Assembly (NCBI GenBank): GCA_036630325.1
Contig: CP142731.1
Span: 1,240,001 to 1,281,651 of the forward strand
Direction: 5' to 3'
Origin: Vairimorpha necatrix
Lineage: Eukaryota
DNA: 41,651 nucleotides
The position numbers and the translations under genes are program-made. Every line of letters begins with the position of its first letter. Within the stretch, counting starts at the first letter, position 1. The notes beneath the pieces were generated by a model. That model worked only from the letters and a program-made list of their open reading frames with translations. It searched no databases and was not told the origin of the DNA. This document shows, in pieces, positions 2-41,651 of the stretch.

Positions 2-1333
2 ATGAATTCAATACTATCTCCTCATTTACATAAATTTGTACAAGTATACTTAGATGATATAATGATATATTCAAGATCGGTTAAAGAACATCTAGAACAC
101 ACGGAAGCAGTGTTTAAAATATTAGACAAATTAAAACTGAAAGTCAATCAAAAAAAATGCAAGATTGCTAAAAATTCAGTAAAATTCTTAGGTTATATGA
201 TAAACAAAGATGGAATAAGCATACCATTAGAACAACAAACCAAATGTTTACGACTTAAAGTTCCGAAAACTCTCAAAGAAACTAGGGCCTTTATCGGATT
301 TATTAATTACTTTAGGAAATTTATAAAAAACTACACAGATATAATGGCCCCGATTTATGAATGCTTGAAAAAAGGAAAATTTGAGTTTTCTGAAAGCGCT
401 AAACAAAGTGTAACCAAAATAAAAGAGATTATCACGAGCTCTCCAGTCCTTAAACTACCAGATTTTAACAGAAAGTTTATTTTATATACAGATGCATCTA
501 ATTTATACATAGGAGCAACACTAATGCAGGAATACGAGGGAATAGAAATGCCAGTATATTTTATATCAAGGAAATTAAATACGGCAGAAATCAACTATAC
601 AGTAACCGAAAAAGAGTGTCTTGCTATAATATGGAGCATAACACAATTCAGAATATATCTTACAAATACATTTATAATCCGTACAGACCACCAAGCGCTT
701 AAATGGCTACTGAGTTTTAAAGAGAGTACAGGGAGATTAATGAGATGGATTCTAACTTTAGAAAATTACTCTTACGAAATTGAGTATATTAAAGGAAAAG
801 ATAATGTAATTGCAGATGGATTAACCAGATTTGTCCATACAGTAAATAAGGACCAGGCTGATGAACTATCCGTTTCAGAAAAAAAAGAACTTATTCTAAA
901 GTGTCACGAAGAATGTGGGCATGGGAGTATATTTCCAACATACACGCTAATCCTCCAGAAAGCGCAATGGAAAGGTATTTACGCAGATATAAGAAAAGAA
1001 ATAGAAAATTGCCAAGTATGTCTGAAATTTAATCCTAAAAGAATACCCAAAGAGTATCATAGGATTCAACTGAAAGAACCATTTTCTCTAGTTGGTATCG
1101 ACATAGTAGGCCCATTGCCTAAGTCAGAAAATGGAAAGATTTATATAATTGTAGCTACCGATTACATTACTAGATGGTGTGAAGCTAAGGCCGTGAAGAA
1201 TAAAACAGCCAAAACAGTAGCCAAATTTATTTTTGAAGAGATCATATGCAGACATGGTCCACCGAACGAACTACTTTCAGATAGGGGACTCGAATTTTTG
1301 AACTCTACAGTAAAAGAATTATGTAGAATTTTT
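2..1333 (+). pseudogene. pol: Gypsy pol 5' segment (RT C-terminal part, RNase H, integrase N-terminal part and core), disrupted by Merlin insertion
   Basis: ORF 2..1378 has VYLDD, YTDAS, IRTDH, H-H-C-C and GIDIVGP. The pol sequence ends at ELCRIF (1333); the remaining codons read into the Merlin TIR. Confidence 0.93.
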
Positions 1334-2458
1334 GGATCTAGTTTGTTATACGCCCTATCCGGGCGTATAACAAACTAGGTTTTTAAAAATTTACCCTCAT
1401 GAGAACGGGTGTGTCGCAGTTTGAAAGTTACGTACAAATCCGTAGAATGCCACCTAGAGAGATGATTTCTGTTCTGCGAGAACAAAACCTTCTTTTGACC
1501 AGTATGTCCTGTTCTGAGTGTTCATCTGGCATGGTTGAGAGATCAAAGAAAGGCCCGGACCTCATATGCTGGACTTGTGATAATAAAGTGTGCAGGCTCT
1601 ACAGAAGCACAAAGAGCATTAGAACTGGATCGTTTTTTGAGGGATTTAAATTGCCATTGTCCGAGATCTACGCTATGATTATGCTTTGGAGCAAGGGAAA
1701 ACAGATTAAAGAGATCATTTCTGAGCATGGATTTAGAAGAAACAGCATCGTGGCAATTATAAACAAGTTGAGAACTATTCTTAAAGGATACTTCGAGGCT
1801 GATTCTATGAGATTGGGAGGTCCAGGTATTGTTTGCCAGATCGACGAAAGCCAGTTCGTCCACAAGATCAAACATCATCATGGCAGAGCACCATCAAGTG
1901 ATGTGTGGGTTTTTGGGATCGCAGACACCTCTTTCTCTCCTGCGAAGTGCTATATGGAGATTGTTCCCAATCGAACAGCTGCTGTTTTACTTCCGATCAT
2001 TGCTAGGATATGTAGACCTGGCACAATCATTCACTCTCATGGCTGGGGATCATATGTGAATATCGAAAGAGAGCTCGGGTTCCGTCATCTGGTTGTAAAC
2101 CACAAGACAAATTTCGTTGATCCGATAACTGGAGCCCATACCCAGAACATAGAGTCATTCTGGAATAAGATGAAGATTGTGATTAAGAAAATGTATGGTG
2201 TTCAAAAAGCACAACTTCCTGGTCTTCTAGCTGAACTGATGTTCAGAGATGAGTTTAAGCAGGCTGTGTTCATCAGAATTCTATCTTTACTAGCCATAAG
2301 CAATAAAATTAATTAATTCTAAAACAAGCCTGTTTTTTTACAATGCTGCTTTTTTATTATCATGCTAGAAAAGTTATTCTCTCTTAAAAATGTGTAATTT
2401 TTTATTCCGGGCGTATAACAAACTAGGTTTCCCTCCGGGCGCGTAGCAAACTAGATCC
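1334..2458 (+). mobile_element. Merlin (IS1016/ISXO2-like) DNA transposon, 1125 bp
   Basis: TIRs GGATCTAGTTTGTTATACGCCC (1334-1355) and GGGCGCGTAGCAAACTAGATCC (2437-2458) match at 19/22. 8-bp TSD GAATTTTT at 1326-1333 and 2459-2466. Single transposase ORF. Confidence 0.95.
1399..2316 (+). CDS. Merlin/IS1595-family DDE transposase (second catalytic Asp appears replaced by His)
   Basis: N-terminal Cys zinc ribbon (CSEC...C...C), SIRTGSFFE, LGGPGIVCQIDESQF, VNH...FVDP.TGAHTQNIESFW. CCC motif just before the ATG (TTTACCCTCATG). Confidence 0.92.
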   Translation: MRTGVSQFESYVQIRRMPPREMISVLREQNLLLTSMSCSECSSGMVERSKKGPDLICWTCDNKVCRLYRSTKSIRTGSFFEGFKLPLSEIYAMIMLWSKGKQIKEIISEHGFRRNSIVAIINKLRTILKGYFEADSMRLGGPGIVCQIDESQFVHKIKHHHGRAPSSDVWVFGIADTSFSPAKCYMEIVPNRTAAVLLPIIARICRPGTIIHSHGWGSYVNIERELGFRHLVVNHKTNFVDPITGAHTQNIESFWNKMKIVIKKMYGVQKAQLPGLLAELMFRDEFKQAVFIRILSLLAISNKIN

Positions 2459-2466
2459 GAATTTTT

Positions 2467-3114
2467 CATGTGCGAAAATCTTTTACTTCGTCTTACCATC
2501 CTCAATGTAATGGTACAGTTGAAAGAACCAATCAATCGCTGGTAGCTAAACTGGCCAAAATAACTAATGAAAGATGGAAAGAATGGGACGAATATTTAGA
2601 ACTAGCACTATATGCTTATCGTATTTCTCCAAGGAAGAAAACGGGATTTTCACCATTTGAATTATTGTATGGACGTAAGCCACAAGAATGGGATCAGACT
2701 AACCAAGAGATAGTACCCATGGAACCTAATCTATTGATATTTGAAAGATTAAACCAAACTCGAGAAATAATGCTTCAAGCAGAGAGAGAAGCACGGGAAA
2801 GAGAAATGGGAAATGTGAAAGAACAGGCTTTTAAAGTAGGGGATATAGTACTGAGGAGAAAACCTCCAATCAATATAAAAAATAAACTGGACAGTAAATT
2901 TGAAGGACTTTACACTATAACTAAGATAGGAAAAAGGGGTGCGTATGAAATAACTAGTCCAAATAATGTTGTTTTCTCGGTGAATCAGAAAGATTTAAAA
3001 AAAATGGATTTTGAAAAGGAAACTTGGGAGCCGATAAGGAAGGGGGGAGTGTCAAGGGACAGATCTCCAGTGGTCCTAAGATTGCCCTGGAGACCAGAGA
3101 ATACCATACTATAG
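2467..3114 (+). pseudogene. pol: Gypsy pol 3' segment (integrase core end and C-terminal domain)
   Basis: HVRKSFTSSYHPQCNGTVERTN, TGFSPFELLYGR and GPY/F-like FEGLYTI. Continues the 2..1333 frame exactly once Merlin and one TSD copy are removed. The stop codon lies in the 3' LTR. Confidence 0.93.
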
Positions 3115-5953: not shown

Positions 5954-5991
5954 TGTGGGATTTAAAACCCTCAATAAATAAATGGTTTACA
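5954..5991 (+). repeat. 5' LTR of element B (38 bp)
   Basis: TGTGGGATTTAAAACCCTCAATAAATAAATGGTTTACA directly followed by the PBS. Confidence 0.85.
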
Positions 5992-7151
5992 TGGCGAACA
6001 CAAGCGAAAACGGGGTAACAAGTGAGACCCGCGTTCAAGAGAACAGAAAAATTTTCAAAGAAGCTAATAGAGTAGAAGCGATTATCAGAATTTAGGAAGA
6101 AGTAAATGAAATGACACTGAAGCAGGCGATAAAACAATTAATTATTAAACTTTATGATTTTATTATTGATATAAATATAATCAGTATGACAAATTGGACG
6201 ATATTATTGAAGAAATTGGAAAATTAGTTGTTGAAGAGGAAGAGAATGAGAACAAGGAAAAGATAAGGAGGAGAGAACTAGAAGATATGGTAGAGGTCAT
6301 GAAAGAAAAATTTTGAAGAGAGATTAAAGGAGAATTGCCCAGGAAAGTAGCAGTGCATGGAAGACATTCTTATTATAAAAGATGAGAAGAAAAATATTGT
6401 TTTGTATGTGGTAAAATGGGACACATAGCTAAGAAGTTTTCATAACGTAAAGGAAATGAAAAAGATCAAGTTAATAAAGAAAATAAAAATTTGGACTTTT
6501 TGCATGCTAAAAGTGAAAATCAATGTAAAAGAAGTAAAAGTAATTTGACTATAGAAGAATTAGAAAATAGATTGTGGTGCGAGCTGCCTTCCTGGCCGCT
6601 CGGCTTGTTTAAATAATTTGCTTTTGTATAATATTTGTTAACTTTAGTTCTTTTAATCACTCGGTGAAGGGCTAGAAATTCATCCTTTTATTTTTATTTT
6701 TAATAAATGTCAAGCATATCATTAATTGGGGGGAAAGCCGGTCTCTTGTACAGCTTTCCATATTCTGGCCATATTCACTAGAATAGACATTTTCTTATTC
6801 GTCATTTGTTTGTTGACGAAGACGTATTTGTTTACGTGTATGACTCGGCCGTAATTGAGATATGACAGTCGAGGGATTCAAATATTAGAGTCTCACTGGG
6901 CCTGTAATAGGTACAGGAAGGATGTCGTGTGACATAGATATCCCGAGGTATTTAAAATAAGACCAGATGAAAAGATAAAATACTTAACAGGAGAAAATGT
7001 CTAATCTAGACAAAATTAAGGGGAGAAAATAGTGAGAAAAGGGCAAGTTGTTCCCAGAGCCTTAAATCAAAGTTTGTTATGTATTGGAAGATTTGAGAAA
7101 AAGAAGGATTATTAGGAAGTCGAAATATATGCGGCGAAACCCTATTAGGGC
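5982..7151 (+). pseudogene. Element B gag and RT N-terminus remnant (split by solo LTR 6573-6934)
   Basis: MVYMANT start, zinc knuckle remnant CFVCGKMGHIAKK near 6398, EELENR|YPEVF across the solo LTR, RRNPIRA at the element C junction. Many stops. Confidence 0.75.
6573..6934. mobile_element. Solo LTR (362 bp) inserted in element B
   Basis: TGTGG...TGACA termini with 5-bp TSD TAGAT (6568-6572 and 6935-6939). Removal restores the host frame ENRYPEVF. Confidence 0.88.
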
Positions 7152-7238
7152 TGTTGATATTTTTATATTTTTATATTTTTATTACCCCAATTTTTAAGAT
7201 GAGTAAGGAAGTGGAGGAGAAGAATCTCATAAATAAAA
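7152..7238 (+). repeat. 5' LTR of element C (87 bp, TG...AA)
   Basis: Identical to 10520-10606. Contains T-rich repeats, CCCC, the gag ATG (7199) and AATAAA. Confidence 0.92.
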
Positions 7239-10200
7239 TGGTGGAGAATATGAAAACAAAGCCAGTTGAAACTACCATCAAAAAGGAAAATTTGATGAGT
7301 GAATGTAGAAGGTTAGAAAATATGACCTTCTTCAGAGAAATGTGCGATGAGAGGAAAATCGAATATTTGATTGGAAGAGCTGACTACTTTATAGTAGATT
7401 GGCACCATGAGTTGATGGACACTAAAAGGAGGTGTTCGTTGGATTACGAAAAATGGAAAGAGTTGGCTAGAACCGAATTTGAAAAGAAAAGGCTTACTAT
7501 AGGGGAGTTATATCGCATGGTACAACAAGATGAAGAAACTATACCAACGTTTATAGAAAGAGTTAGAGATTCAGCCAGAGAGTACAAACTTGCAAAAAAG
7601 GAAATCATTGATATAATTACAGCTGGACTTAAAACAGGAATGGGCGATGTAAAAAGATTTTTATTGGCAAATAGTGATATTACAGATGAAAATCTAGAGA
7701 CAATCAAGAAATTGGAAAGTGAGTGTACAGCTGAATTACACCGAATTAATGATTTAAAATTGATGATTGAAAAAATTGATACTCTTAAATTTCAGGGGAA
7801 GAAAACAGTTAAATGTTACAACTGTAATAGCTTAGGCCATTATGCTAGAGATTGTCGAAAGCCAAAGAGAAGTGAAAATCTTAGGAGAAACATTAATGAA
7901 ATTACTGAAGAACTTAGAGATTTATTAAATAAAGAAAATTCAGTTTACATTTGTGGAGAGAAGGTTCCAGTATTGTTTGATACAGGTGCAAATTATAATT
8001 TTATAAGTAGTGCTAGTGTAGCAAGATTCAACCTTTTAACACATAATAACACAAGGAAATTAAGATTTTGGACATGTTTGGAAGAATCATTTGTGATAAA
8101 AAGACATGTTATATTAAATTATACATATAAAGGACATTTATATAGATCAAAGTTTTATATATTGCCAAAAGTACGAACTGAAAAAATCCTATTTGGTAGA
8201 GAAACATTAATTAGACTTAATAATATTGAGAAACTGAGTTATACATGTGAAATCAAAACACCTGAAGGCTCAAAAGTGATCGAAAAGATATATAATTTAC
8301 CAAAGAAATTGGAAGCAGAAATTGAAATTGCTATTAATAAATTATTAGAAAAGGGATATATACAAAACTCAAAATCAACGTGGGTTAGTAATTTGAGACC
8401 CGTGATAAAGCCAGATGGCACTGTAAGGGTTACAACCAATTTAATAGCACTTAATAGGTTGGTAGAACAGGATAATTATTCTTTACCAAGAATAGATGAA
8501 ATCCTTTGTAATTTAAGAGACATGACAGTATTTTCTAAATTGGATTTGAAGGATGGATTTTTTCAAATTCCTTTGGCACCGAAAGATAGATATAAAACGG
8601 CATTCAGATATAAACATAAATTATATGAGTGGAAAGTAATGCCACAGGGGTTTAAGAATGCTCCAGCAATATTTCAACGAAAAATGGATAAAGTTTTGAG
8701 AGATGAAATTGGTAAAAGTTGTTTCTGCTACGTAGATGATATTCTAATATTTGGAAAAACTGCAAAAGAGCACGACGAATCATATAATAGAATTCGAAAA
8801 CTTTTACTAGAAAATAATCTCAAAATCAATGAGGAAAAGTGTGTATTTAGACAATCCGAAGTTCTATTCCTGGGATACAAAATTAAACACAACATCATTA
8901 TTCCGCTCATAGATAAGATGCAAGCTATTGAGGATTTAAAACCACCTAAGGACAAAAAACAGATTCAAGAATTTTTAGGTGCCATAAACTATTATAGAAA
9001 ATTCATTAAAAACTGTTCAATTGTATGTGGTCCTTTGTATGAATTATTGAAAAATAAGAAAGAATTCAAATGGACGAATATAGAAGAGAACGCTTTTAAA
9101 GAAGTTAAAAGAATTTTTATTAATACGGTAGGACTATTTCAGCCAGATTGGTCAAAAGAATTTAAACTAGAGACCGACGCTTCAAATGAAGGTATAGCTG
9201 CAATACTCTCGCAAAATTTTGATGGAGATGAAAAACCAATTGCATTTGCATCGAGAAGGTTATTAGAACATGAGATTAAATATAGTATCAGCGAAAAGGA
9301 ATGTCTGGCCATGTTATGGGCAATGGAACACTTTCGATATTTTTTATACGGTACACATTTTGAAATTATCACAGATCATAAAGCGTTAGAAGCATTAAAT
9401 AAGGGTCAAATTAAGTCTCTGAGAATACAAAGATGGCTAGATAGAATGTCATTGTTTAATTTTAGAATTAGATATAGACGAGGTAAAGAAATTCCTCACG
9501 TGGATTGCCTAAGTCGAAATTCTGGATTGGCAACAAACGACAAGAGATTAAATTTACACGAAGGATCGATAAATCAATGTGAAGAAATGGACGAAAAGAA
9601 AATGCTTCAGATGATTCGCGAAATTCATAATGAGTTACTTCACCGTGGGATACAATCAGTAAAATATGAGATGTATAAAAGAGGTATTAATATAAAAAAT
9701 TCACAAAAATTGATTAGAAAAATTATAGATTCGTGTGAAACATGCAACGAGTACAATTCTAAAAAATCTAAACAATACATATTTGTTACCTCGTATGCAA
9801 AGGGAGAAAAAATTGCTATAGATATAATAGGTCCAATAAACACACAATACATTATAACTGGGATTGATTATTTTACGAGAAAAGGATTTGCTAAAGTGAT
9901 AAATAAGAGAAAAGATGAAAATGTAGTTAACTTTCTAAAAGAAATAAGTTCATCTATGTCTTTGAAGACATTGATCCTGGATCAATCGAAAGAAAATCTC
10001 AGTAGTAAGGTAAAAATGTTTTGCCAAGCAAATAAAATAGAATTACATTATACCACACCTTTCCATCACCAGTCAAATGGGCGTGTAGAAAGGTTTAATC
10101 GTACTTTACAAGATTTAATTTATAAAAATAAAAAGGAAAAATTACTTACTGAAAAGGTTAACAGAGGAATAGAGATATACAATAATAGCTATCATTCGGC

Positions 10201-10510
10201 TACGAGGATGACGCCAAATGAAGCTTTCTCGTTAGAAAATACGGATGAATTAAAAAATGCACAAATTAAGAATATTGTTGCATATAATACAGCCCAAATG
10301 AGGAAACCAAAAGAAATTAAATTAAATATGGGCGATATAGTAATTATCAAAGAAGAAGGAATAATAAAGAAGGGACAACCTAGATTTAAATTAAGGGGTA
10401 AAATTCATAAATGTTTAGAGGGTAATACGTACATGATAGACACCGGTAAAAGAATGTTTAAAAGGCATATATCTCAACTCAAACTTGTCATTGATGACCC
10501 CATCCTTTAA
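7199..10510 (+). CDS. Gag-Pol polyprotein (Gag with CCHC knuckle, aspartic protease, RT, RNase H, integrase), 1103 aa from the first ATG
   Basis: CYNCNSLGHYARDC, LFDTGA, YVDD, ETDAS...ITDH, H-H-C-C, AIDIIG/ILDQS/VERFN. The frame is uninterrupted; first ATG at 7199 follows a CCCC motif. Confidence 0.95.
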   Translation: MSKEVEEKNLINKMVENMKTKPVETTIKKENLMSECRRLENMTFFREMCDERKIEYLIGRADYFIVDWHHELMDTKRRCSLDYEKWKELARTEFEKKRLTIGELYRMVQQDEETIPTFIERVRDSAREYKLAKKEIIDIITAGLKTGMGDVKRFLLANSDITDENLETIKKLESECTAELHRINDLKLMIEKIDTLKFQGKKTVKCYNCNSLGHYARDCRKPKRSENLRRNINEITEELRDLLNKENSVYICGEKVPVLFDTGANYNFISSASVARFNLLTHNNTRKLRFWTCLEESFVIKRHVILNYTYKGHLYRSKFYILPKVRTEKILFGRETLIRLNNIEKLSYTCEIKTPEGSKVIEKIYNLPKKLEAEIEIAINKLLEKGYIQNSKSTWVSNLRPVIKPDGTVRVTTNLIALNRLVEQDNYSLPRIDEILCNLRDMTVFSKLDLKDGFFQIPLAPKDRYKTAFRYKHKLYEWKVMPQGFKNAPAIFQRKMDKVLRDEIGKSCFCYVDDILIFGKTAKEHDESYNRIRKLLLENNLKINEEKCVFRQSEVLFLGYKIKHNIIIPLIDKMQAIEDLKPPKDKKQIQEFLGAINYYRKFIKNCSIVCGPLYELLKNKKEFKWTNIEENAFKEVKRIFINTVGLFQPDWSKEFKLETDASNEGIAAILSQNFDGDEKPIAFASRRLLEHEIKYSISEKECLAMLWAMEHFRYFLYGTHFEIITDHKALEALNKGQIKSLRIQRWLDRMSLFNFRIRYRRGKEIPHVDCLSRNSGLATNDKRLNLHEGSINQCEEMDEKKMLQMIREIHNELLHRGIQSVKYEMYKRGINIKNSQKLIRKIIDSCETCNEYNSKKSKQYIFVTSYAKGEKIAIDIIGPINTQYIITGIDYFTRKGFAKVINKRKDENVVNFLKEISSSMSLKTLILDQSKENLSSKVKMFCQANKIELHYTTPFHHQSNGRVERFNRTLQDLIYKNKKEKLLTEKVNRGIEIYNNSYHSATRMTPNEAFSLENTDELKNAQIKNIVAYNTAQMRKPKEIKLNMGDIVIIKEEGIIKKGQPRFKLRGKIHKCLEGNTYMIDTGKRMFKRHISQLKLVIDDPIL

Positions 10511-10519
10511 GCGGAGGGA

Positions 10520-10606
10520 TGTTGATATTTTTATATTTTTATATTTTTATTACCCCAATTTTTAAGATGAGTAAGGAAGTGGAGGAGAAGAATCTCATAA
10601 ATAAAA
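10520..10606 (+). repeat. 3' LTR of element C (87 bp)
   Basis: Follows the PPT, is identical to the 5' LTR and is followed by TSD AGGGC. Confidence 0.92.
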
Positions 10607-10611
10607 AGGGC

Positions 10612-13156
10612 TATTAAAAAACCTAATGGAGCTGTTTGAATTGTCAGTAATTTTAAAGGATTGAATGATTTGGTCGAAAGAACCCATATGAGTTGCCAAG
10701 AATCAGAGATATTATAATTGCGAAACGGGCTCTAGAGTTTTTACAGTGCTTGATATTAAAGAAGCATTTTATCATATTGAAATTGAAGAAGCGCAAAGAT
10801 TTAAAATTACGTTTGAATTTGAAGGAAATGTATATGAGTGGAATAGCATGGTCATGGGATATAAAAATGCACCTCGGATTATGCAGAGGACAATGAATAA
10901 CATTTTAAACAACTTGAGAAGAAAAGGAGTAGAAGTTTATATGGATGACATTGTTGTTTATTCGAAGACGTATAAAAAACATGATGAGATATTAAATGAA
11001 GTGTTGCGGAAATTATAACATCATGGCCGAAAAGTAAATGTAAGTAAGGTACGTGTGATGTACATGACTACATCACATGGACAGCTGTCAAACCCATCAG
11101 CTGTCAAACATCTTAAACGGCATGTCATGGCGAGTCACACAAACAAATAAACAAACGAAAGTTGGATGGTCGTTACTACATTCGTAAGTACGCCAATGTT
11201 TGTGTTTAGTGTTGACAACAATTAACAAATTAAAAATAAACTATACAAGAAAGTCTGTCGGTGAAGGGTATGGAATATCAGAGGAATAGAAACACCATCA
11301 ATAAAGTTATTAATATTAACAATATTTTAGAAAGCTATATAAATATAGCAAAGTCCCGTCTATACAGGACAGTACGATATAGGCTGGATAAAGTTAAATT
11401 ATTAGGAGTTGGTGTGAATGGTGATTGTAGAAAACCATCTGAAATTAAGCGCAATGAAGCATTAAAATTTAAAAGTTCGACGAATGTTAGTGAGTTTCGT
11501 AGAATTTTTAATATTGACAGGATGGTTCAGAAAATTTATAGGGAATTATGCTATTATGACAATAGCACTTGCAGACGCGTTAAAGAAAGATAAGGAATGG
11601 GATTGGATCGATGAAATGGAATGTGAATTTAACGCATTGAAAGATGAATTGAGGAATACAATTGAGTTAAAAATTCCAGTTTATACAAAATTATTTTTTT
11701 TAAAAAATGATGCTTCAGACACGGAATTGAGAATATTGTTACAAACAAATAAGGAAGGTAAGTGTGGTTCTATTCAGTAGGCTTCTAAAAAGCTGAAACC
11801 AGCAGAAAGAAAATATGGTATTTCAGAAAAAGAAATGTTAGCAGTGTTTTGGGGTATAAAAAAGTATGAATATGATTTAAGAGGTAAAAAATTTTAATTA
11901 CAGACAGACCTTAAAGCTTTAGAGGCAATGAGATCTAAAGAATGCTATTATAATAATAGAATAAATCGGTGGATCGAGAAAATTTTTAGTGTTCGACTTT
12001 ACAGTTAAATATAATAGAGGTGAAACAATGACAGATGTAGATGCTTTAAGCAGACCTTTCAGGATGACGCAAATAAAGAAAAGAAAACAGAGATTATAAA
12101 AAACAAATTTTAAGAAAAGAAGTGAAACATGTTTAAGAAGTAAATGGAGAAAAGATATGGAAGTAAAATCAGGATAAACAGCGATAGTTCCAGATACGGA
12201 AATTAGAGATAAGTTTATTAAGGAAAAACATTTGGAGCTTAATCACAGAGGAATAAAAGGTACTTATTATGAGTTGAAAAAGAAATGGTATTGGTTAGGT
12301 ATGATGAAAACATAAGTAACATATTGAGAGAATGCTAAACGTGCAGAAGTATTAACAGAAAGAACAGAGAGGGTGGATTTATTGCCCCCATGAAAACAGG
12401 AGAGAAGTTAGGTCTTGATATCATGAAAATAGGAAATCCAAAATGCAATGTTCTGCAGGAATTGACTTTATCCGAGATATGCGTATAGTGCAGTATTGGA
12501 TAGAAGAACTAGTAGTAATGTTATAAAGACAATGGAAAACTGGTTTAAAGAAGAGTGTGTACCAGAAGAGATAATTAGTGACAATGCAAAAGAGTTTGTT
12601 GGCGAAGAATTTTGACGATGGTGTTGTGATAATGAGATATTACATCATAAGGTAAGTGTTGAAAGTTATGGTAGTAGTGAAAGGATATTAAGATTAATAA
12701 GAACTTTATGAGAAGCTGTACTTAATCAAAGTGGAGGCAATTTAAAAGAAAAAGTGAAGAACGCAATCGATGTATATAACAGAAGGTATTACAGTTGAAT
12801 AAAATGTAGCCCAATCGAAGCAAAAGGTGAAATGTCTAGTTGCGGAAAGTTAAGAACGCTAAATGAGAAAGATGGTGAGTATTCAAAGAAGTGTGAGAAG
12901 AGATGAAGAGAACAATTTAAACTGGGAGATAAGGTTTTTTTAGCTAAGAGAGAAATTTTAGCAAGTCGAATGAAAGATGATAAAGGAAGATACGTAAATG
13001 AGTAGTAATAATCGAAATTGTAGAATGATTCGTACTTAATAAAATACAATGATGGTATGATAAGAAAGCAGAGACATTTTGATTTCAAAGTCTGTGCTAA
13101 GGTGAAAAAGGTTCGTTAGGTTGATGTTAATGAGACAAATCGTCTTGAGAAGGGAA
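10612..13156 (+). pseudogene. pol: Element B pol remnant (RT, RNase H, integrase) with stops and frameshifts, split by solo LTR 11054-11371
   Basis: Fragments LDIKEAFYHIEI, VYMDD, GWFRKFI, NDASD, HRGIKGTYY...WYW and ISDNAKEF are colinear with the element D protein. Confidence 0.88.
11054..11371. mobile_element. Solo LTR (318 bp) inserted in element B RT
   Basis: TGTGA...GGACA termini with TSD GTACG (11049-11053 and 11372-11376). Removal restores KVRYRLDKVKLLGV. Confidence 0.88.
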
Positions 13157-13195
13157 TGTGGGATTTTTAACCCCCTAATAAATAAATGGTATACA
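13157..13195 (+). repeat. 3' LTR of element B (39 bp)
   Basis: TGTGGGATTTTTAACCCCCTAATAAATAAATGGTATACA after a purine tract; a diverged copy of 5954-5991. Confidence 0.85.
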
Positions 13196-17932: not shown

Positions 17933-18483
17933 ACTAACATAACTAATATTGTTTTAAAATATTCAAAGACAATTAAAAAATTAAAAATATATATCTGATA
18001 AATTTTGATTTAAGGTTTTGAATCAGATACACGTGTTTTGATTTTTACAAAATTTTTTTTTAATCTGAAATCTCCTTAAAAACATGAAAAGTAGTTAGAT
18101 TTAAATTTTACAAATTCTTATAAAACAATTTATGGGTTATCAGCATTCTCAATGTCCATATTTTTTTATCTATAGAATTGTAAACAACAGTATTGGGGTT
18201 TCTAGTATATTATGCATACTTGAACCTTCTGTTTACCTTATCGTATGACCTAAATTGTCTTTTAAGCGTTTGTTCTATTTAAAGTTATGGTCATTAATCA
18301 TAACGCCATATATATACTCGATATTGATTAATCCCTGCAATCTGCGAAGACTAAATATGTAACTTCCTAACATTATATTTTTGCCTGATAAAGTTATCGC
18401 CAATATAATATCGTGATTTTTATACTATTCATAATCATATATATCTGTTTTTTATATTAGGGTTATCAATATTTTTTATTAAA

Positions 18484-18521
18484 TGTAGGGTTTAGAACCC
18501 TTAATAAATAAATGGTTAACA
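18484..18521 (+). repeat. 5' LTR of element D (38 bp)
   Basis: TGTAGGGTTTAGAACCCTTAATAAATAAATGGTTAACA. Confidence 0.93.
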
Positions 18522-21500
18522 TGGCGAACACAAGAATGAACAGGGAAACAAGAGAGTCCCGTAGTCAAGAGGCTAGAACATTAGAGAAAGAGGCAATTAG
18601 GATAGATAAGAGACTAAAGTTAATATTGAAAGTTGAGTGGAAAGATGTTATGGATTTGGCATCTGCGAACTTGCAGGATTATATTTTTGAAAATTTTTGT
18701 GACGGAAGGAGCAGTTGGGAGGAAATTTATAAAGGCTTACAAAAAGGAGCAGAATTTGAGAGAGAGTCAGAAGAAAGACAAGAAATGATTAAAGAGATTA
18801 TGGATAAAGTGTTGAAAGAGTTTAGGGAAGAAAGAAAAGAAAATCTTAGGATGTATAGGAAAAGAAGAGAAATCAGAGAAACTACAAAATGTTTTATATG
18901 TAAGAAAGAAGGGCATTACGCTAGAGAATGTCATGAAAGTGTAGCTGGTAGAGAAAAATATAAAATTAAAAAGGAACAAGTTTTACAGAAAGAACCAATT
19001 ATCAACAATGAAGGGAAAAGATGTAAAACAGTAAATAAGTTAGAAAATTTAATTGAAAAGTATCCGGAAGTTTTTAAAGAATCAGAAGAAAAGATAAAAT
19101 ATCTCACAGGAGAGAAGTGTCCAATAAATACTAAGCAAGGTGAAAAGGTTGTGAAAAGAGGGCAGAATGTGCCATACTACCTTAGGGTGAAATTTGAGGA
19201 GTACTTGAATAAGTTGGAAAATAGAGGGGTTATAAGACGTTCCAAAAGTGAGTGGAGGAGTCCAATAAGAGCACTTGAAAAACCAAATGGGGACGTAAGA
19301 TTGGTAAGCAATTTGATGGCGTTAAACGATTTGGTTGACAAGGACCCGTACTCACTACCGTTAATTAAGGATATTATGAGAGCCACACAGGGGTCAAAAG
19401 TATTTACGGTTATCGACTTAAAAGAAGGGTTTTATCATATTGAGATTGAGGAGCACCATAAGCACAAAACAGCATTTGAAGTGAATGGTCGAGTATACGA
19501 ATGGAATAGTATGGTTATGGGGTTTAAGAATTCGCCTCATATAATGCAGAGAGTAATGAACAGAGTTTTAGATGAATTCAGAGGTAAAGGCGTGGAAGTA
19601 TATATGGATGATATAGTTATTCATGGTAAAGACGTAAGAGTGCATGACGAGTTACTAGAGAGGGTAATTAAAAAGTTTAAAGAGTGTGGGTTGAGAATAA
19701 ACCAAACAAAGATACAATACAAAAAAGATGAGGTGATGTTGCTGGGAGTAACAATTAATGGGGAGGTCATGGGACCGAATGAGATTAAAAAGCAGGAGAC
19801 ATTGGAATATAGAAAACCTGAGAATGTTAGAGAGTTAAGAAGATTAATAGGACTAACTGGTTGGTTTAGAGACTTTATTCCCAACTATGCGTATAGAACA
19901 GTAAGGCTTACTGAGGCTTTAAAGAAAGATGTTAAGTGGAATTGGACGGAGGATATGGAAAGAGCTTTTGAGGATATGAAGCAAGGCTTGAGAGATATGA
20001 AAAAGTTGAAGATTCCGGACGGAAAAAAGCTATTTAGAGTAAGAACCGATGCGTGTGATACGGGGATCGGAGCAATTCTATTACAAGAAAATAAAGAGGG
20101 TGAGTGGATTCCGATACAATGGGCATCGAAAATGTTGACTCCTACCGAGCGAAGATATACGATAAGTGAGAAGGAGATGTTGGCGGTGTTTTTTGGAATA
20201 AAGAAGTTTGAAAGTGATTTGAGAGGAAGGAAATTTCATTTGATGACGGATCATAAAGCATTAGCAGAGATCAGAAATAAGCCATACTTCAATAATAACA
20301 GAATAAACAGATGGGTAGAACAGATACAAGAGTTTGACTTTACAATAGAGTATGTGAAAGGGGAGTTGATGACAGATGCAGATGAGTTAAGTAGGCAGTA
20401 TGATCAGGTAGAAGTTTCGGATGAACAAAAAGAAAAGGACAACAAGAGAAAAGAAGTGATCGAAAAACAAATTTTGGGGAAAAAGCAGAAACATATTAAA
20501 GAAAAGGACGGTAAACAGTATTGGGAATTTTCCACAGGTGAGGTGAAAGAGATATTGAGCCTAGATAGTAGAGAACATGAAATAACAAGAGTACATGAGG
20601 AGTTAAACCATAGAGGTGTCAAAGGCACTTATTATAACATTAAACAAAGATGGTATTGGCCTGGTATGAAAGATCATATTAATAAGGTAATTAAGAATTG
20701 TGAAATATGTGGGATTAACAATAGGAAAAACACAGGAGGATGTGATTTCGTAGTAACTAGAAAGAAATTGGAGAAAGTGGCGTTGGATTTAATGGACATA
20801 GGTGGAGAGAATAGGTATGTGTTACTGGGTATTGATTACTTTACTAGAAGGTTGTGGGGTTCGAATTTGAGATGTAAAGAGAGTAGTGAAGTTTTAGAGG
20901 TATTACAAAAGTGGATAAGGGAAGATGGATTTCCAGAGGAATATGTGACAGACAACGGAAAAGAGTTTGTAAGTAATAGATTTAAAGAATGGTGTAGTAT
21001 TAATGATATTAAACATAGGAAAGTGGGCTTAGAAGCTCATAGGAGTAATGGTAGAATCGAGAGATGCATCAGAACTATAAGAGAGACATTGATAAAGCAA
21101 AATGATGGGAATATTTCTGAAAAGATAGAAAGAGCAATCGAAGGATATAATAATACACTACATACAGCAATAAAATGTACGCCGATGGAAGCGTGGAGAG
21201 ATCAAACTGCTGAAGTTATAATTGAAAATGATGAAAATGGAAAATATGCTGGTCGGTTCAAGAGAAGACACAGAGAGACATTTACAGTAGGCCAAGAGGT
21301 AAGAATCGCTAGGAGAGAAAATTTAGGTACACGTGCGAAAACAGACAAGGGAAGATTCACGGGTCGCGGAAGGATCGTAGCTATAAGTGAAAATGATTCA
21401 TATATTGTGAGACTACTGGATGGTAAAATTGTTAAAAAGAGGCATTATGATTTGAAAGAGATAAGGAAGAGTTGTTTAGAAGATGGAGAGACTACCCGTC

Positions 21501-21523
21501 TGGAGGGGGGATGTAGGGTTTAG
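18512..21523 (+). CDS. Compact Gag-Pol polyprotein (short Gag with CCHC knuckle, RT, RNase H, integrase; no recognisable protease), 1003 aa
   Basis: CFICKKEGHYAREC, VYMDD, RTDAC...MTDH, H-H-C-C, ALDLMD/VTDNG/IERC. No D[TS]G motif between the knuckle and RT. Confidence 0.93.
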   Translation: MVNMANTRMNRETRESRSQEARTLEKEAIRIDKRLKLILKVEWKDVMDLASANLQDYIFENFCDGRSSWEEIYKGLQKGAEFERESEERQEMIKEIMDKVLKEFREERKENLRMYRKRREIRETTKCFICKKEGHYARECHESVAGREKYKIKKEQVLQKEPIINNEGKRCKTVNKLENLIEKYPEVFKESEEKIKYLTGEKCPINTKQGEKVVKRGQNVPYYLRVKFEEYLNKLENRGVIRRSKSEWRSPIRALEKPNGDVRLVSNLMALNDLVDKDPYSLPLIKDIMRATQGSKVFTVIDLKEGFYHIEIEEHHKHKTAFEVNGRVYEWNSMVMGFKNSPHIMQRVMNRVLDEFRGKGVEVYMDDIVIHGKDVRVHDELLERVIKKFKECGLRINQTKIQYKKDEVMLLGVTINGEVMGPNEIKKQETLEYRKPENVRELRRLIGLTGWFRDFIPNYAYRTVRLTEALKKDVKWNWTEDMERAFEDMKQGLRDMKKLKIPDGKKLFRVRTDACDTGIGAILLQENKEGEWIPIQWASKMLTPTERRYTISEKEMLAVFFGIKKFESDLRGRKFHLMTDHKALAEIRNKPYFNNNRINRWVEQIQEFDFTIEYVKGELMTDADELSRQYDQVEVSDEQKEKDNKRKEVIEKQILGKKQKHIKEKDGKQYWEFSTGEVKEILSLDSREHEITRVHEELNHRGVKGTYYNIKQRWYWPGMKDHINKVIKNCEICGINNRKNTGGCDFVVTRKKLEKVALDLMDIGGENRYVLLGIDYFTRRLWGSNLRCKESSEVLEVLQKWIREDGFPEEYVTDNGKEFVSNRFKEWCSINDIKHRKVGLEAHRSNGRIERCIRTIRETLIKQNDGNISEKIERAIEGYNNTLHTAIKCTPMEAWRDQTAEVIIENDENGKYAGRFKRRHRETFTVGQEVRIARRENLGTRAKTDKGRFTGRGRIVAISENDSYIVRLLDGKIVKKRHYDLKEIRKSCLEDGETTRLEGGCRV

Positions 21524-21549
21524 AACCCTTAATAAATAAATGGTTAACA
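21512..21549 (+). repeat. 3' LTR of element D (38 bp)
   Basis: Identical to 18484-18521, directly after the PPT; contains the ORF stop codon. Confidence 0.93.
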
Positions 21550-21842
21550 TATAATAAAGGATATATACTCGTTTTTGCCGTGTAAAATGTATATTATTTT
21601 TTAGTATAACATGTATATATATTAGATTTGTATATTCGGATCAAAGAAAATCTTATATAATTTTATTTTATATAAGAAAGCATAAAACTAATATTGTAAA
21701 TTATTCTATTATTTAGTTAAATCGCTTAATAATTTTCAATCTGACTAATTTGAAATTTTTCTTTATGTTTAGAAAGAAAACAAAAATAAAAGAAAGTTAA
21801 ACTATAATTGGTTTTCTTAAAGGTTAACAAATGTTTAAATAA

Positions 21843-36241: not shown

Positions 36242-39200
36242 TGTTAAAGTTGAACCTCTTGATAAATAAATGTATAACATGGCGAACACAAAAGACGCTA
36301 TGCTAACAGGTGAGACCTGTGTTTTAGAGAACAGAAAATTACTAAAAGAAGATAAGCAAGTGAGACAATCATCATAATGCAGAAAGATGTGGAAGCTATG
36401 ACAACGAAAAGGCGAAACAAGTAAGTACTGAACTTCAAAATTTTATTGTTGATAAAAATTTAATCAGTATAATAAATTGGAATGATATTATTAATGAAAT
36501 TGATAAATTAATGTTGAAGAGAAAGAGAATAAGAACAAGAAAAAAATAAGGAGCAGAGGACTAGAAGGTATGGTAGAGGGTATGAAATAAAATTAAGAGA
36601 GAGATTAAAGGAGATCTGACTTGACTATAGCAGTGCCAGCAAGACACTTTCAATATAAAAGACGAGAAACCAAAAAACAAGTTTTATATGTAAGAGCGTT
36701 GGACATATAGTTAGAAGTTGTATAGAGCGTAAAGGAAGAAAGGAAGAGAATAACGAAAATAAAAAAGTTTAATATTTTAGTATTCGTGATAATAGTAAAA
36801 TGAAAATATTTAAAGGAAATGATTTTAAAATAAGACTACCAGTGGAGGGCGAAAAGAGAACTCTAGATACAGTTTTTATGTAGAAAATACAACCAAAGAT
36901 AAAAGGGGAAAAAATATTAATAAATTACAAGAATTGAGAGGAAAATTTCTAGAAGTATTAGGAAATGACGAAGAGTAAATAAAATACTTAACAAGAGAAA
37001 AATGTTCTATTAAAACAAAACAAGGAGTGAAAGTAGTTTAAAAAAGACTAAATATTTTTTATAATCTCGAGAAAAGTTGAAAAAGCATATTAATTGATTA
37101 GAAAGTAGAGGTTTTTTTAGAAGGACAAAGAGCGAATGGAGAAGCCCAATAAAGCCCATAGAAAAACTAAATGGTGAAGTACAATTGAGAAGCAATTTGA
37201 TGGATTTAAACGAACTGGTTTAAAAAGATCCGTATGAATTGCCATTGATTAGAGACATTATTAGGGCAACGGAGGTTCTAAAGTATTTATGGTTTTAGAC
37301 CTAAAGTTAGGATTCTATCATATAAAATTGAGAAAGCTCAAAAACATAAGACAGCTTTTGAGATAATTGTTCGAGTTTACACATGGAATAGCATTGTATT
37401 GGGATTTAAAAATGCATCCCATATTATGAAAAGAGTGATGAACGGAGTTTTAGATAAGTTTAGAGGTAAGAGCGTTGAGGTGTACATGGATGATATTATT
37501 ATTCATGCAAGAGATAGTAATATACACGAAATTTTTTTAAAACAAAAAATTCGAAAACTTAACGAATGTGGATTAAAAGAAACTTAAAAAAAATACAATA
37601 TAAAGGAGAAATAAAACTACTTGGAATATCAATTAACGGAGAAGACATTACACCTAACAAAATTAAAAAGCAAGAGACATTAGAATACAGAAGGCCTAAC
37701 AATATATAAGATCTTAGAAGATTTGAGGGACGTGCAGGCTGGTTAAGAGATTTTATTCCCCATTATGCTTATCGGTCAGCGCTTCTTACGGAAGCACTAA
37801 AAAAAGATGTTAAATGGTGATGGTCCGAAGATATGGAAAGAGCTCTTATGGATATCAAAGAGGGTTTAAAGGATGTGAAAAAATTAAAAATGGTAGATAG
37901 TAAAAAAATGTGTAGAGTAAGAACAGATGCATACGATACGGGAACTTGAGCCATACTATTGCAAGAAGACAAAGAAGGAAAGTGGAATCAGATACAATGG
38001 GCATCAAAAATGTTAACAGCAACAGAAAAAAGGTATATGATTAATGAAAAAGTGATGTTGGCAGTGTTATTTGGAATAAAGAAATTCGAATCCGATTTGA
38101 GGGAAGCAAATTTCATTAAATGAAAAATCATAAAGGACTGGCCGAGATTAGAAACAAACCGTTTCGCAAAAATAACAAAAATAATAGATGGATAAAAAAC
38201 ATACAAGAGTTCGATTTAACTATTGAATATGTAAAAGGAGAATGGATGACGGATGTAGATGCTCTTAGTAGACAATTTAAAAATAACAAAGTGAAAGAAA
38301 GCAGCGAAAGATAGAAACGGACTTAAAAACAGATGAAAGGGAAAGCAAAAAAGCGCATGGTTAAAAGAGAAGGTAAAAACTATTGGAAGTTTTCAACAGG
38401 AGAAATTAATAAATACAACTCAAAGAAATAAGTGAGAACGGAAATTCGTAGAGTTCATGAGGAATTAAATCATCGAGGAGTTAAGGGAACACATTATAAG
38501 ATTATACAAAGATGGTACTGGCCAGGTATGAAGGACCAGATAACCACATCGCTAAAAAATTGTTAAGTATGTAGCATTAATAACAGAAAAAAGATCGGGG
38601 GTGGCAATTTTTTTTGGCATTTAAGAAATTAGAAAAAGTAGCTTTAGACGTAATGGATATTGAGGAAAAAGAAAAATACGTGCTATTAGGGACTGACTCC
38701 TTTACGAGAAGAGTATGGGGCGCAAAGATGGAAAATAAGGGAAATGATGTTATTACGAAAATTTTAGGATAATGGATAAATGAAGATGGATGCCTAGATG
38801 AATATTTCGGATAACGGTAAGGAATTTGTCAGTCAGAAGTTTGTAACTTGGTGTAAAGAAAATGGAATAATGCAATGGAAAGTATATTTAGAAGCTCATA
38901 GGGTTAATTGGAGAATAGAACGATGTATTTGAACAATAAGGGAACCGATGATCAAAAAAAAAGAAGGAAACCCAGAGGAAAAACTAGAACAAGCTGCAAG
39001 AACCTATAATAACACTCTACACACAGCGATTAAATGTACACCAATGGAAGCATGGAAAGAACAAGGAAAAGAAGTCTTAATTGAAAACAATAAAAAGAAT
39101 GTGTATGCAAGTAAGTTTAAACAAAAGCATAGAGAAAAATTTGAAGTAGATCAGGCTGTGAGAATCGCAAGATAAAAAACTTGGGTAAATAGATGAAAAG

Positions 39201-39409
39201 TACAAAAGGAAGATTTACAAGTGTCGGTAAAATATTCGGAAAGTATAGAATGATTCTTATTTTGTAAGGACTGATAGCGGAAGATACATTAAGAAAGACA
39301 TTATGACCTAGAATTTTTAAAAATGATAAATTAGAAGCTTGTAACCTGAGACTACCCGTTTGAAGGAGAAATGTTAGGGTTGAACTTTCCTATAAAAAAA
39401 TGTATAACA
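36242..39409 (+). mobile_element. Degenerate miniature-LTR Ty3/Gypsy element 'E' (3168 bp)
   Basis: 38-bp LTRs 36242-36279 and 39372-39409 (30/38 identical) with TSD TATAA (36237-36241 and 39410-39414). PBS TGGCGAACAC at 36280; PPT GAAGGAGAAA. Confidence 0.92.
36270..39371 (+). pseudogene. Element E gag-pol remnant with many stops and frameshifts
   Basis: MYNMANT start; fragments MGFKNASHIM...VYMDD, IQEFDLTIEYVKGE and YNNTLHTAIKCTPMEAW closely match the element D protein. Confidence 0.9.
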
Positions 39410-39572
39410 TATAATCATTAATCTGAAAAAAAAATAATTGAATAAAAAAAATAGTTAGATAAATTTTTATTAAAAATTTTCTTTTTTTATTTATTTTAGT
39501 TACATATTAATTTAACTGATAAATTTTTTAAACAAAAGATTGAGGAAGTTTTGAGGGCTAAAAGCTTACGTG

Positions 39573-41651
39573 TTAGTTAGGTTAGGTAGGTAGGTAGGTA
39601 GGTTAGGTAGGTAGGTAGGTAGGTTAGGTAGGTTAGGTTAGGTAGGTTAGGTAGGTAGGTTAGGTTAGGTAGGTAGGTTAGTAGGTTAGGTAGGTTAGGT
39701 AGGTAGGTAGGTAGGTAGGTTAGGTTAGGTAGGTAGGTTAGGTAGGTTAGGTAGGTAGGTTAGGTTAGGTAGGTTAGGTAGGTAGGTAGGTAGGTGTAGG
39801 TAGTAGGTTAGGTAGGTAGGTTAGGTAGGTAGGTAGGTAGGTAGGTTAGGTAGGTTAGGTAGGTAGGTAGGTTAGGTAGGTTAGGTTAGGTTAGGTAGGT
39901 AGGTTAGGTTAGGTAGGTAGGTAGGTTAGGTTAGGTAGGTAGGTAGGTAGGTAGGTTAGGTAGGTTAGGTAGGGTAGGTTAGGTAGGTAGGTTAGGTAGG
40001 TTAGGTAGGGTGGTAGGTTAGGTAGGTAGGTAGGTTAGGTAGGTTAGGTAGGTAGGTGGTTAGGGTAGGGTAGGTAGGTTAGGTAGGTTAGGTTAGGTAG
40101 GTAGGTAGGTTAGGTTAGGTAGGTTAGGTAGGGTAGGTTAGGGTAGGTTAGGTAGGTAGGTAGGGTAGGTTAGGTAGGTTAGGTTAGGTAGGTAGGTAGG
40201 GTAGGTTAGGTAGGTAGTAGGTAGGTAGGTTAGGTAGGTTAGGTAGGTAGGTTAGGTAGGTAGGTAGGTAGGTAGGTTAGGTAGGTAGGTTAGGTAGGTT
40301 AGGTAGGTAGGTAGGTTAGGTAGGTAGGTTAGGTAGGTTAGGTAGGTAGGTAGGTAGGTTAGGTAGGTGGTTAGGTAGGTTAGGTAGGTAGGTTAGGTAG
40401 GTTAGGTAGGTAGGTAGGTTAGGTAGGTAGGTAGGTAGGTAGGTTAGGTAGGTAGGTAGGTTAGGTAGGTAGGTAGGTTAGGTAGTAGGTTAGGTTAGGT
40501 AGGTTAGGTAGGTTAGGTAGGTTAGGTAGGTAGGTTAGGTAGGTTAGGTTAGGTAGGTTAGGTAGGTAGGTAGGTTAGGTAGGTTAGGTAGGTAGGTTAG
40601 GTAGGTAGGTAGGTAGGTAGGTTAGGTAGGTTAGGTAGGTAGGTTAGGTAGGTAGGTAGGTTAGGTAGGTAGGTAGGTAGGTAGGTTAGGTAGGTAGGTA
40701 GGTTAGTAGGTTAGGTAGGTTAGGTAGGTTAGGTAGGTTAGGTAGGTTAGGTAGGTTAGGTAGGTAGGTAGGTTAGGTAGGTAGGTAGGTAGGTTAGGTA
40801 GGTAGGTTAGGTAGGTTAGGTAGGTAGGTAGGTAGGTTAGGTTAGGTAGGTAGGTTAGGTAGGTAGGTTAGGTAGGTTAGGTAGGTTAGGTAGGTTAGGT
40901 AGGTTAGGTTAGGTAGGTTAGGTAGGTAGGTTAGGTTAGGTTAGGTAGGTTAGGTAGGTTAGGTAGGTTAGGTAGGTAGGTAGGTTAGGTTAGGTTAGGT
41001 AGGTAGGTAGGTAGGTTAGGTTAGGTTAGGTAGGTTAGGTAGGTTAGGTAGGTTAGGTTAGGTTAGGTAGGTTAGGTAGGTTAGGTAGGTAGGTAGGTTA
41101 GGTTAGGTAGGTTAGGTAGGTTAGGTAGGTTAGGTAGGTAGGTTAGGTAGGTTAGGTTAGGTTAGGTTAGGTAGGTAGGTTAGGTAGGTTAGGTAGGTTA
41201 GGTAGGTTAGGTAGGTTAGGTAGGTTAGGTAGGTTAGGTTAGGTAGGTAGGTTAGGTAGGTTAGGTAGGTTAGGTAGGTAGGTAGGTTAGGTAGGTAGGT
41301 TAGGTTAGGTAGGTAGGTAGGTAGGTAGGTTAGGTAGGTTAGGTAGGTTAGGTAGGTTAGGTTAGGTAGGTTAGGTTAGGTAGGTTAGGTAGGTTAGGTA
41401 GGTAGGTTAGGTAGGTAGGTTAGGTAGGTTAGGTAGGTTAGGTAGGTAGGTAGGTTAGGTAGGTAGGTAGGTAGGTAGGTAGGTAGGTTAGGTAGGTAGG
41501 TAGGTAGGTAGGTAGGTTAGGTAGGTTAGGTTAGGTAGGTAGGTAGGTAGGTAGGTAGGTTAGGTAGGTAGGTAGGTAGGTAGGTAGGTTAGGTAGGTTA
41601 GGTAGGTAGGTAGGTAGGTAGGTTAGGTAGGTTAGGTAGGTTAGGTTAGGT
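39573..41651 (+). repeat. Telomeric array of irregularly mixed TAGG and TTAGG units
   Basis: About 2.08 kb running to the end of the window, G-rich strand 5'->3' toward the end. Occasional TAG, TGG and TAGGG variants. Confidence 0.96.

Follow-up and report, generated by a model that had tools for sequence, protein, structure and literature searches.

Ty3 of Saccharomyces cerevisiae and Tf1 of Schizosaccharomyces pombe are long terminal repeat (LTR) retrotransposons with the domain order reverse transcriptase (RT)-RNase H-integrase (IN), LTRs ending in TG...CA, a 5-bp target-site duplication and a polypurine tract (PPT). Their LTRs, of approximately 340-360 bp, are organised as U3-R-U5, the region of the primer-binding site (PBS) is non-coding, the capsid is two-lobed and the protease is essential; Ty3 is primed by a tRNA and employs frameshifting, and Tf1 has one open reading frame (ORF), primes itself and degrades Pol. 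Here we analyse element D, which lies in a 41,651-nucleotide stretch of the genome of the microsporidian Vairimorpha necatrix (hereafter the window; assembly GCA_036630325.1, contig CP142731.1, positions 1,240,001 to 1,281,651 of the forward strand). Element D has the RT-RNase H-IN order, TG...CA ends, 5-bp duplication and PPT in common with Ty3 and Tf1, but its LTRs are of only 38 bp, its PBS lies within the ORF and it has no protease. From the sequence comparisons reported here, we consider it, on balance, best explained as a young, protease-less Ty3/gypsy element built on the very short transcription signals of its host.

The TRIM and SMART elements are non-autonomous miniature LTR elements with short LTRs, a PBS and a PPT, which encode nothing; element D is likewise small with short LTRs, but 98% of it is coding, and its RT, RNase H and integrase are intact. 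In mitochondrial mRNAs, UAA stop codons are completed by polyadenylation after tRNA excision, whereas the process proposed below for element D would involve nuclear, AATAAA-directed cleavage inside an ORF. The Nbr elements of Nosema bombycis, attributed to Xu et al. 2006, are reportedly microsporidian single-ORF Ty3/gypsy elements, and a protease-less exception may already be described in that work. In the part of PMC2474625 that was available, 'nearly all' Nbr elements are said to have Gag, protease, RT, RNase H and IN. Single-ORF microsporidian Ty3/gypsy groups are described by Parisot et al. 2014 (PMC4202319), the supplement of which contains 'Aalg retro L' (3,127 bp, 50-bp LTR, ORF 32-3049), as well as many other families whose ORF starts inside the LTR. 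By eye, the first 600 nt of Aalg retro L have a CCC-ATG in the LTR, a junction ATG, a zinc knuckle and AAT-AAA...TAT 12 nt apart, as in the clade of element D. The word 'protease' occurs 0 times in the main text of that paper, and the portion of the text examined does not discuss LTR length, a translated PBS or Gag expression.

For the Ty1/copia elements EVD of Arabidopsis and BARE, a spliced, prematurely polyadenylated Gag RNA, the shGAG mRNA, has been described (Oberlin et al. 2017, PMC5580714, in the sections available). EVD and, as we propose, element D are alike in having a single ORF from which excess Gag is made via a prematurely polyadenylated subgenomic RNA. In EVD, splicing removes the protease region and the stop is reached via a frameshift, stop-less short RNAs giving no Gag (PMC5580714, same sections), whereas our proposal for element D involves no intron and has the poly(A) tail supply the end of the stop codon, the DNA itself having no protease. 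Literature searches at the level of titles and abstract openings, to the exclusion of subscription papers and bioRxiv supplements, returned no protease-less or 38-50-bp-LTR microsporidian element and no tail-completed Gag stop, and the accessible parts of PMC10133504, PMC13174016, PMC3614468, PMC2387174 and PMC7313128 contain nothing further on element structure. The internal poly(A)-like signal after the zinc knuckle is a new observation of the present analysis.

Structure of element D

Element D comprises 3,066 bp (18484-21549), with two identical 38-bp LTRs (38/38), and has the following features.

18479..18483, + strand: left 5-bp flank, unlike the right flank (21550-21554) at 2/5 positions
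18484..18521, + strand: 5' LTR, 38 bp, TG...CA; predicted U3 ~1-19, R ~20-38, U5 ~0
18487..18501, + strand: GGG...CCC inverted repeat, stem 6 bp, loop 3 nt; neither conserved nor significant
18498..18500, + strand: CCC start signal, 21 nt before the LTR end
18503..18512, + strand: two overlapping AATAAA hexamers (18503, 18507), 13 and 9 nt before the LTR end
18512..18514, + strand: first in-frame ATG, within the LTR, from LTR position 29
18521..18523, + strand: junction ATG, composed of the final LTR base and the TG that opens the PBS; start conserved clade-wide
18522..18535, + strand: PBS, 14 nt complementary to tRNA-Arg(UCG)+CCA; no spacer; lies in codons
18512..21523, + strand: single ORF, 1,003 aa; short Gag-like helical region, CCHC knuckle, RT, RNase H, integrase
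18512..18931, + strand: Gag-like part, four helices (~120 aa) and one CCHC knuckle (aa 127-140)
18965..18985, + strand: putative internal poly(A) signal, ATTAAA (18965-18970) 12 nt before TTA (codon 158)
19277..20335, + strand: RT core (YMDD) and RNase H (Pfam, aa 256-415 and 478-608)
20570..21019, + strand: integrase zinc-binding and core domains (Pfam, aa 687-836)
21502..21511, + strand: PPT, 10 nt, adjoining the 3' LTR; coding as well
21512..21549, + strand: 3' LTR, identical to the 5' LTR; contains the stop codon (21521-21523)

Pfam places RT, RNase H and integrase in this order in the ORF, the stop codon of which lies in the stem loop of the 3' LTR (positions 10-12), leaving 28 + 26 non-coding bases. 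A first-pass annotation, made from the letters of the window, had already noted that the stop lies inside the 3' LTR and that hardly any internal DNA is non-coding, as the ORF at 18512-21523 confirms; this position of the stop is peculiar to family D, families with 48-49-bp LTRs stopping 17-23 nt before the LTR. The LTR features that it had listed (a stem, CCC, overlapping AATAAA and the ATG at 18512) are all present, as is the second in-frame ATG at 18521, which spans the boundary of LTR and PBS (A from the former, TG from the latter). The layout ATG-NNN-NAC-ATG-GCG-AAC-ACA also recurs, as it had claimed, at 5982 in element B and 36270 in element E, the ORFs of both of which are broken. The stem is real as a string, but is neither significant nor conserved: 6.4% of 1,000 shuffles fold equally well and it is missing from the 48-57-bp LTRs, and a conserved RNA element at this position was rejected. 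The pairing of AATAAA with CCC exceeds chance expectation, being found in 0.6-1.3% of windows of 38-49 nt drawn at random from the host genome. The observations of the annotation are confirmed overall, and its interpretation, that one short LTR serves as promoter, poly(A) signal and coding start, is partly supported; it had noticed neither the missing protease nor the poly(A)-like signal inside the ORF. The AATAAA pair in the 3' LTR copy is a putative poly(A) signal.

Copies and target sites

Element D is a young multi-copy LTR retrotransposon that has recently spread with 5-bp duplications at TA-N5-TA sites. Of 38 scored candidates in the host genome, 37 match it over the full length at 98-100%, and the 82 matches to the 38-bp LTR pair (by eye) into 41 elements. 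At most one of the 82 is a solo LTR; one extra LTR results from a tandem partial duplication (C9:441249-445295), which has left one element with three LTRs. The copy analysis covers 29 of 30 loci (L001-L030), L027 having been dropped since its 5' LTR was not found. The LTR pair is identical in 25/29 copies, the target-site duplication is perfect in 26/29 (the copy in the window, L001, has 2 mismatches) and the full-length frame of 1,003/1,006 aa is retained in 14/29, though some of the frame breaks may be assembly errors. The 14 intact copies differ at 4-23 of 2,985 nt, their variants (private, 26 synonymous and 52 not; shared, 3 and 1) being uninformative on selection. The insertion target has A at -6 in 28/29 copies and T at +6 in 29/29; this palindromic preference lies outside the 5-bp duplication, and L129 and the majority of copies in other families show it too. 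DNA-transposon-like movement was ruled out because the RT is intact and because, in each of two copies, both LTRs share a private variant, the footprint expected of reverse transcription.

In one read set, of a kind not on record and perhaps from the assembly's own sample (i.e. not independent support), depth is 60-65 on element D versus 2.6-6 on its left flank; no circle junction of element D was found in that read set. The named nearest homologues are in Nosema and Vairimorpha. No relatives were found in viral contigs; 7 loci are in metagenome contigs and 3 in genome contigs, with both LTRs in one only, and a representative-protein search returned chiefly long multi-RT predictions. One 67%-identical relative (L194) is on a 3-kb contig within a Clostridium metagenome-assembled genome, which is probably eukaryotic contamination. 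At L127 and L128, a clade member lies in frame inside the RNase H region of another retroelement, producing a chimeric ORF, and at L096, L101, L120, L122 and L125, a different repeat of the host genome has the same 11-nt LTR/PBS junction motif with no match to element D.

Absence of a protease and the Gag-like region

Pfam analysis of the element D ORF returned the knuckle, RT, RNase H and integrase only, with no match to an aspartic protease between Gag and RT, where the knuckle-to-RT gap is ~40 aa; no D[ST]G motif was found in its other frames of at least 50 aa. Among 25 families listed for the aligned members of the clade, there is no aspartic-protease or Retrotrans_gag family, any family beyond these 25 matching at most 1/39 members. 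As a control, a protease was matched in 3/3 sister families of the host genome and in P0056. Peptidase_A17 matched 4/39 members, on RNase H where the position is given, and the D[ST]G strings in the linkers of P0010 and P0011 are at unaligned places. In an RT-RNase H tree of 57 sequences, the protease-less proteins group together in a single clade (support 0.983), next to protease-bearing ones; the trees comprise search hits only, without named Ty3/gypsy references, and are midpoint-rooted with FastTree supports and no formal test. As judged by these analyses, the aspartic protease is absent clade-wide. Element D works in the manner of, and almost certainly derives from, a Ty3/gypsy element; because it lacks the protease, we file it as a protease-less derivative rather than as a canonical member.

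The Gag-like region is also reduced. The ~120 helical residues before the knuckle are predicted to form four helices (two AlphaFold models, pLDDT 81 and 76). Five fold searches with the predicted Gag models gave no significant match, the Arc C-lobe and Ty1 CA-CTD appearing only at E ~5. A profile match to the sister C-lobe is in a plausible register but falls short of significance, at E 0.17 with 2/30 block shuffles scoring higher; Atlas matches (0.80-0.82) to Gag-like clusters are leads only, alignment-level hhalign returned the RT start alone, and a homologue search for the sister Gag-protease region returned none. The Gag-like part is at most a candidate capsid, with no significant match in these searches. 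Three basal protease-less members (P0074, P0045 and P0095) have a longer Gag region without a CCHC knuckle, P0074 with a major homology region-like string (by eye), which suggests that protease loss came earlier than Gag shortening.

A poly(A)-like signal after the zinc knuckle

In the linker that follows the knuckle, which is variable, an Asn-Lys pair lies within 23 aa of the knuckle in 25/43 proteins, compared with 146/1,348 windows elsewhere. A Tyr follows exactly 12 nt (four codons) after the Asn-Lys in 19/29 cases, versus 4/158 elsewhere, neighbouring offsets giving 0-4 of 29. In all 13 of the N-K-x4-Y motifs with DNA (6 from protease-less and 7 from protease-bearing families), the Asn-Lys codons are AAT-AAA; the same codons are used in 24/51 other Asn-Lys pairs of the same ORFs, in 209/370 pairs of host-type ORFs and in 3/8 host N-K-x4-Y peptides. 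The Tyr codon is TAT in 10 and TAC in 3. Three of the 13 motifs come from 18 additional protease-bearing stretches. The motif region can be read in 16 of these, and the 13 of the 16 that lack the motif appear to be other, longer-ORF groups. Where Asn is changed to Ile (family D at 18965, L107 and L110), the ATTAAA variant is kept. At the DNA level, 11 of the 14 protease-less families with DNA carry a hexamer no more than 42 nt from the knuckle, as against 61/557 windows elsewhere. The 13-nt spacing, when measured from the first LTR hexamer of element D, ends on the last LTR base.

These observations point to a second poly(A) signal just past the knuckle that would terminate a share of the transcripts early. 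Cleavage would occur after the T or TA of the codon 12 nt downstream, the poly(A) tail would complete an in-frame UAA, and free Gag of ~140-160 aa would be made in excess without frameshifting or splicing. The presence of the motif ahead of the protease in sister families implies that it predates protease loss, which it may have allowed. Several findings weigh against such a signal. Family D itself has the weaker ATTAAA and a TTA codon, which gives a stop only if the cut is exactly at +13; L183, L194 and L196 (3/14 families) lack a hexamer in that 42-nt range, and in L183, which is multi-copy with an intact ORF, Asn-Lys is encoded by AAC-AAG. A subclade amounting to 18/43 proteins is without Asn-Lys, and hexamers recur 4-13 times per pol part, such that cleavage would have to depend on more than the hexamer. 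In addition, the 13 motifs share ancestry, and 10 of them were already known when the codon test was devised. Weighing both sides, we lean modestly towards a Gag-only mRNA formed by internal polyadenylation, with the UAA stop completed by its tail.

The most substantial alternative is that element D depends on a helper, i.e. that a protease encoded by protease-bearing Ty3/gypsy elements (or by the host) is packaged alongside its polyprotein and cuts it, N-K-x4-Y being a protein relic of the first strand of the protease, or a cleavage site, instead of an RNA signal. The host genome contains 147 retroviral-type protease matches elsewhere, many in long open frames, so that a borrowed protease is possible, a point that itself counts against an element working without one; further, N-K-x4-Y is located at the start of the protease domain in the sister families, and the Gag region appears too short to accommodate a capsid of two lobes. 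Yet the synonymous constraint on the motif (AAT-AAA in 13/13 against a background of 47-56%) and the hexamer-keeping Asn-to-Ile changes point to RNA rather than protein, the V/I-N/H-E-I/V junction string that precedes the sister proteases is not evident by eye in the protease-less linkers, and the clade is old and has retained RT, RNase H and IN. We regard helper dependence as unlikely, though deserving of serious consideration.

The LTR and the primer-binding site

In a 400-kb sample of the host genome, CCC occurs within 25 nt of the first ATG of 38/97 long ORFs, compared with 40/567 internal ATGs, which marks CCC as the genome's own start signal; the first-pass annotation had noted that microsporidian genes have a CCC-like motif just upstream of the ATG. 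The CCC-to-ATG gap is 1-5 nt in 28 of the 38 host-type starts; this start set retained at least one element LTR, so its gaps of 10-11 nt are not all from host genes. The available parts of the literature report 5' untranslated regions (UTRs) of <7 nt in Encephalitozoon cuniculi (PMC2803860) and a motif directly upstream of expressed transcripts (PMC11592040).

A run of C is present in 16 of 20 LTR rows, and in 13/16 of these the CCC ends 19-21 nt from the LTR end; these 13 LTRs range from 36 to 57 bp, vary in length solely upstream of the CCC and are associated with three primer tRNAs. The fixed distance suggests that the LTR may be read as U3 plus an R of 15-19 nt, with almost no U5. In six 48-49-bp families an in-frame ATG follows 3-5 nt after the CCC, as in host genes, and in D, B, L115 and C it follows after 10-11 nt (11 nt in D). 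AATAAA is found in 16/20 LTR rows against a background of 8-16%, and its location near the LTR end suggests that cleavage would coincide with that end in D and would fall beyond it, in host DNA, in the 48-49-bp families, so that U5 would be ~0. Use of the LTR as a promoter is supported indirectly by these patterns; the support for its poly(A) use is weaker. On the other side stand CCC-to-LTR-end distances of 16, 24 and 50 nt in the exceptions, an ATG that is out of frame after the CCC in L112, L114 and L129 (L204 has no such ATG) and the variable position of AATAAA, 1-22 nt from the LTR end across families. Family D itself departs from the host pattern, its CCC being 11 nt from the first of two candidate start ATGs (18512, 18521) rather than the host-typical 1-5 nt, and the LTR of element D has no T-rich run before the CCC. 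The multi-copy family of L183 and L184, with an intact 1,009-aa frame, has LTRs that end in TA and contain only ATTAAA, upstream of the CCC.

The departures in family D lend some weight to a view in which the LTR is no autonomous promoter, transcripts reading through from AT-rich flanks chosen by the TA-N5-TA preference and strand transfer taking place in a 38-bp repeat that consists mainly of integrase ends plus first codons. Its target preference is certainly strong (-6 and +6, above), and microsporidian transcription is reported often to run through genes (PMC2803860, in the part available). This view does not account for the constancy of the CCC-to-end distance across families, for the host-like T-run/CCC/ATG spacing of the 48-49-bp families or for the precise TG...CA ends of the copies, and we consider it improbable.

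With respect to priming, the PBS of element D was compared with the tRNAs of the host genome (63 Rfam matches, 50 distinct calls, a lower bound). It pairs over 14 nt with tRNA-Arg(UCG), which identifies the tRNA-Arg that had been put forward as a candidate, over 12 nt with tRNA-Arg(ACG) and over 7 nt with the next best. Self-priming of the Tf1 type is not needed, because a tRNA fits over 14 nt. Other families of the host genome have a PBS for tRNA-Pro(AGG) (13-14 nt) or tRNA-Ala(AGC) (14 nt), again without a spacer, and the junction ATG is in frame in these families too. An LTR that ends in NAC-A and continues with TGG can encode only H, Y, N or D (NAC/NAT) ahead of the junction Met, and one of these residues precedes it in 23/23 homologues that are extended at the N-terminus, from which it follows that the PBS is in frame clade-wide. 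(The homologues were P0001-P0050; of the other 27, 9 start at such a Met or are fragments, 15 are off-pattern, mostly fragments, and 3 were truncated and dropped.) The open frame through LTR and PBS that was first noticed in element D extends to many families, as well as to the published Anncaliia consensus, and the PBS is probably translated, not just in frame.

Other features of the window

Three further elements in the window are related to element D or to its sister families.

5954..13195, + strand: element B, a decayed relative into which element C is inserted; LTRs of 38/39 bp, start arranged as in D
7152..10606, + strand: element C, protease-bearing sister type nested in B, with 87-bp LTRs; its ORF starts in the LTR
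36242..39409, + strand: element E, a decayed relative; LTRs of 38 bp, 5-bp duplication perfect, start arranged as in D

In element C, a tRNA-Ala-type PBS is read in frame and an AATAAA...Tyr motif is present at 7928. Its LTRs end in AA instead of CA on both sides (as in L187) and hold 13 codons, and its 5-bp duplication is G+C-rich. A 5'-truncated Ty3/gypsy pol ORF (2-1378) is followed by an IS1595/Merlin-type transposase ORF (1399-2316), and the contig ends in a composite TAGG/TTAGG telomeric array (39561-41651), a type described for a Nosema species in the available part of PMC11592040.

Discussion

Taken in order, the proposed cycle of element D would begin with RNA polymerase II (Pol II) starting a few bases after the CCC, the LTR thus consisting of U3 and a 15-19-nt R. 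Transcripts would be cleaved ~13 nt after AATAAA, a position that in D coincides with the LTR end and in other families lies in the flanking host DNA, U5 being essentially absent; strong-stop DNA would be ~15-20 nt, and R plus PBS would serve as 5' UTR and first codons. These steps, on the Pol II start, the 15-19-nt R, the near-absent U5 and the short strong-stop DNA, seem to us likely. RNA that reads through the internal signal would yield a Gag-RT-RNase H-IN protein that functions uncut, for which we put the chances at slightly below even. That one uncut Gag-Pol from a single mRNA acts in cis as a ribonucleoprotein, with no particle or separate Gag and with the hexamers largely by-products of A+T richness and descent, would suit the single ORF, the missing protease, the lack of a capsid match in Pfam, profile and fold searches and the families without an internal hexamer, but is very improbable given the position-specific enrichment of N-K-x4-Y and its codons and of the hexamer in post-knuckle windows (11/14 versus 61/557). 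The full combination that we propose, an autonomous lineage with neither protease nor U5, with a mini-Gag from a tail-written stop, an uncut polyprotein and an R of 15-19 nt sufficing for strand transfer, remains tentative, and we would not be surprised if at least one part were wrong.

The proposal makes an exact prediction, namely RNA 3' ends at +13/+14 after one hexamer. An internal Gag-only mRNA would settle the Gag:Pol ratio of a single ORF, freeing Gag without a protease, and a tail-completed stop, if true, would be a further device for setting this ratio, besides frameshifting, read-through, splicing and degradation. Standard LTR finders have a minimum length near 100 bp, and LTRs as short as these would escape them; they also seem to escape solo-LTR deletion, as the rarity of solo copies among the 82 LTR matches indicates. 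The spacing between the RT and RNase H sites is 18 nt. If the proposal is correct, the lower bound for an LTR retroelement would be ~30 non-coding bases, with an R near 18 nt and no protease, and there would be a testable reason for the clade-wide loss of an enzyme thought to be indispensable.

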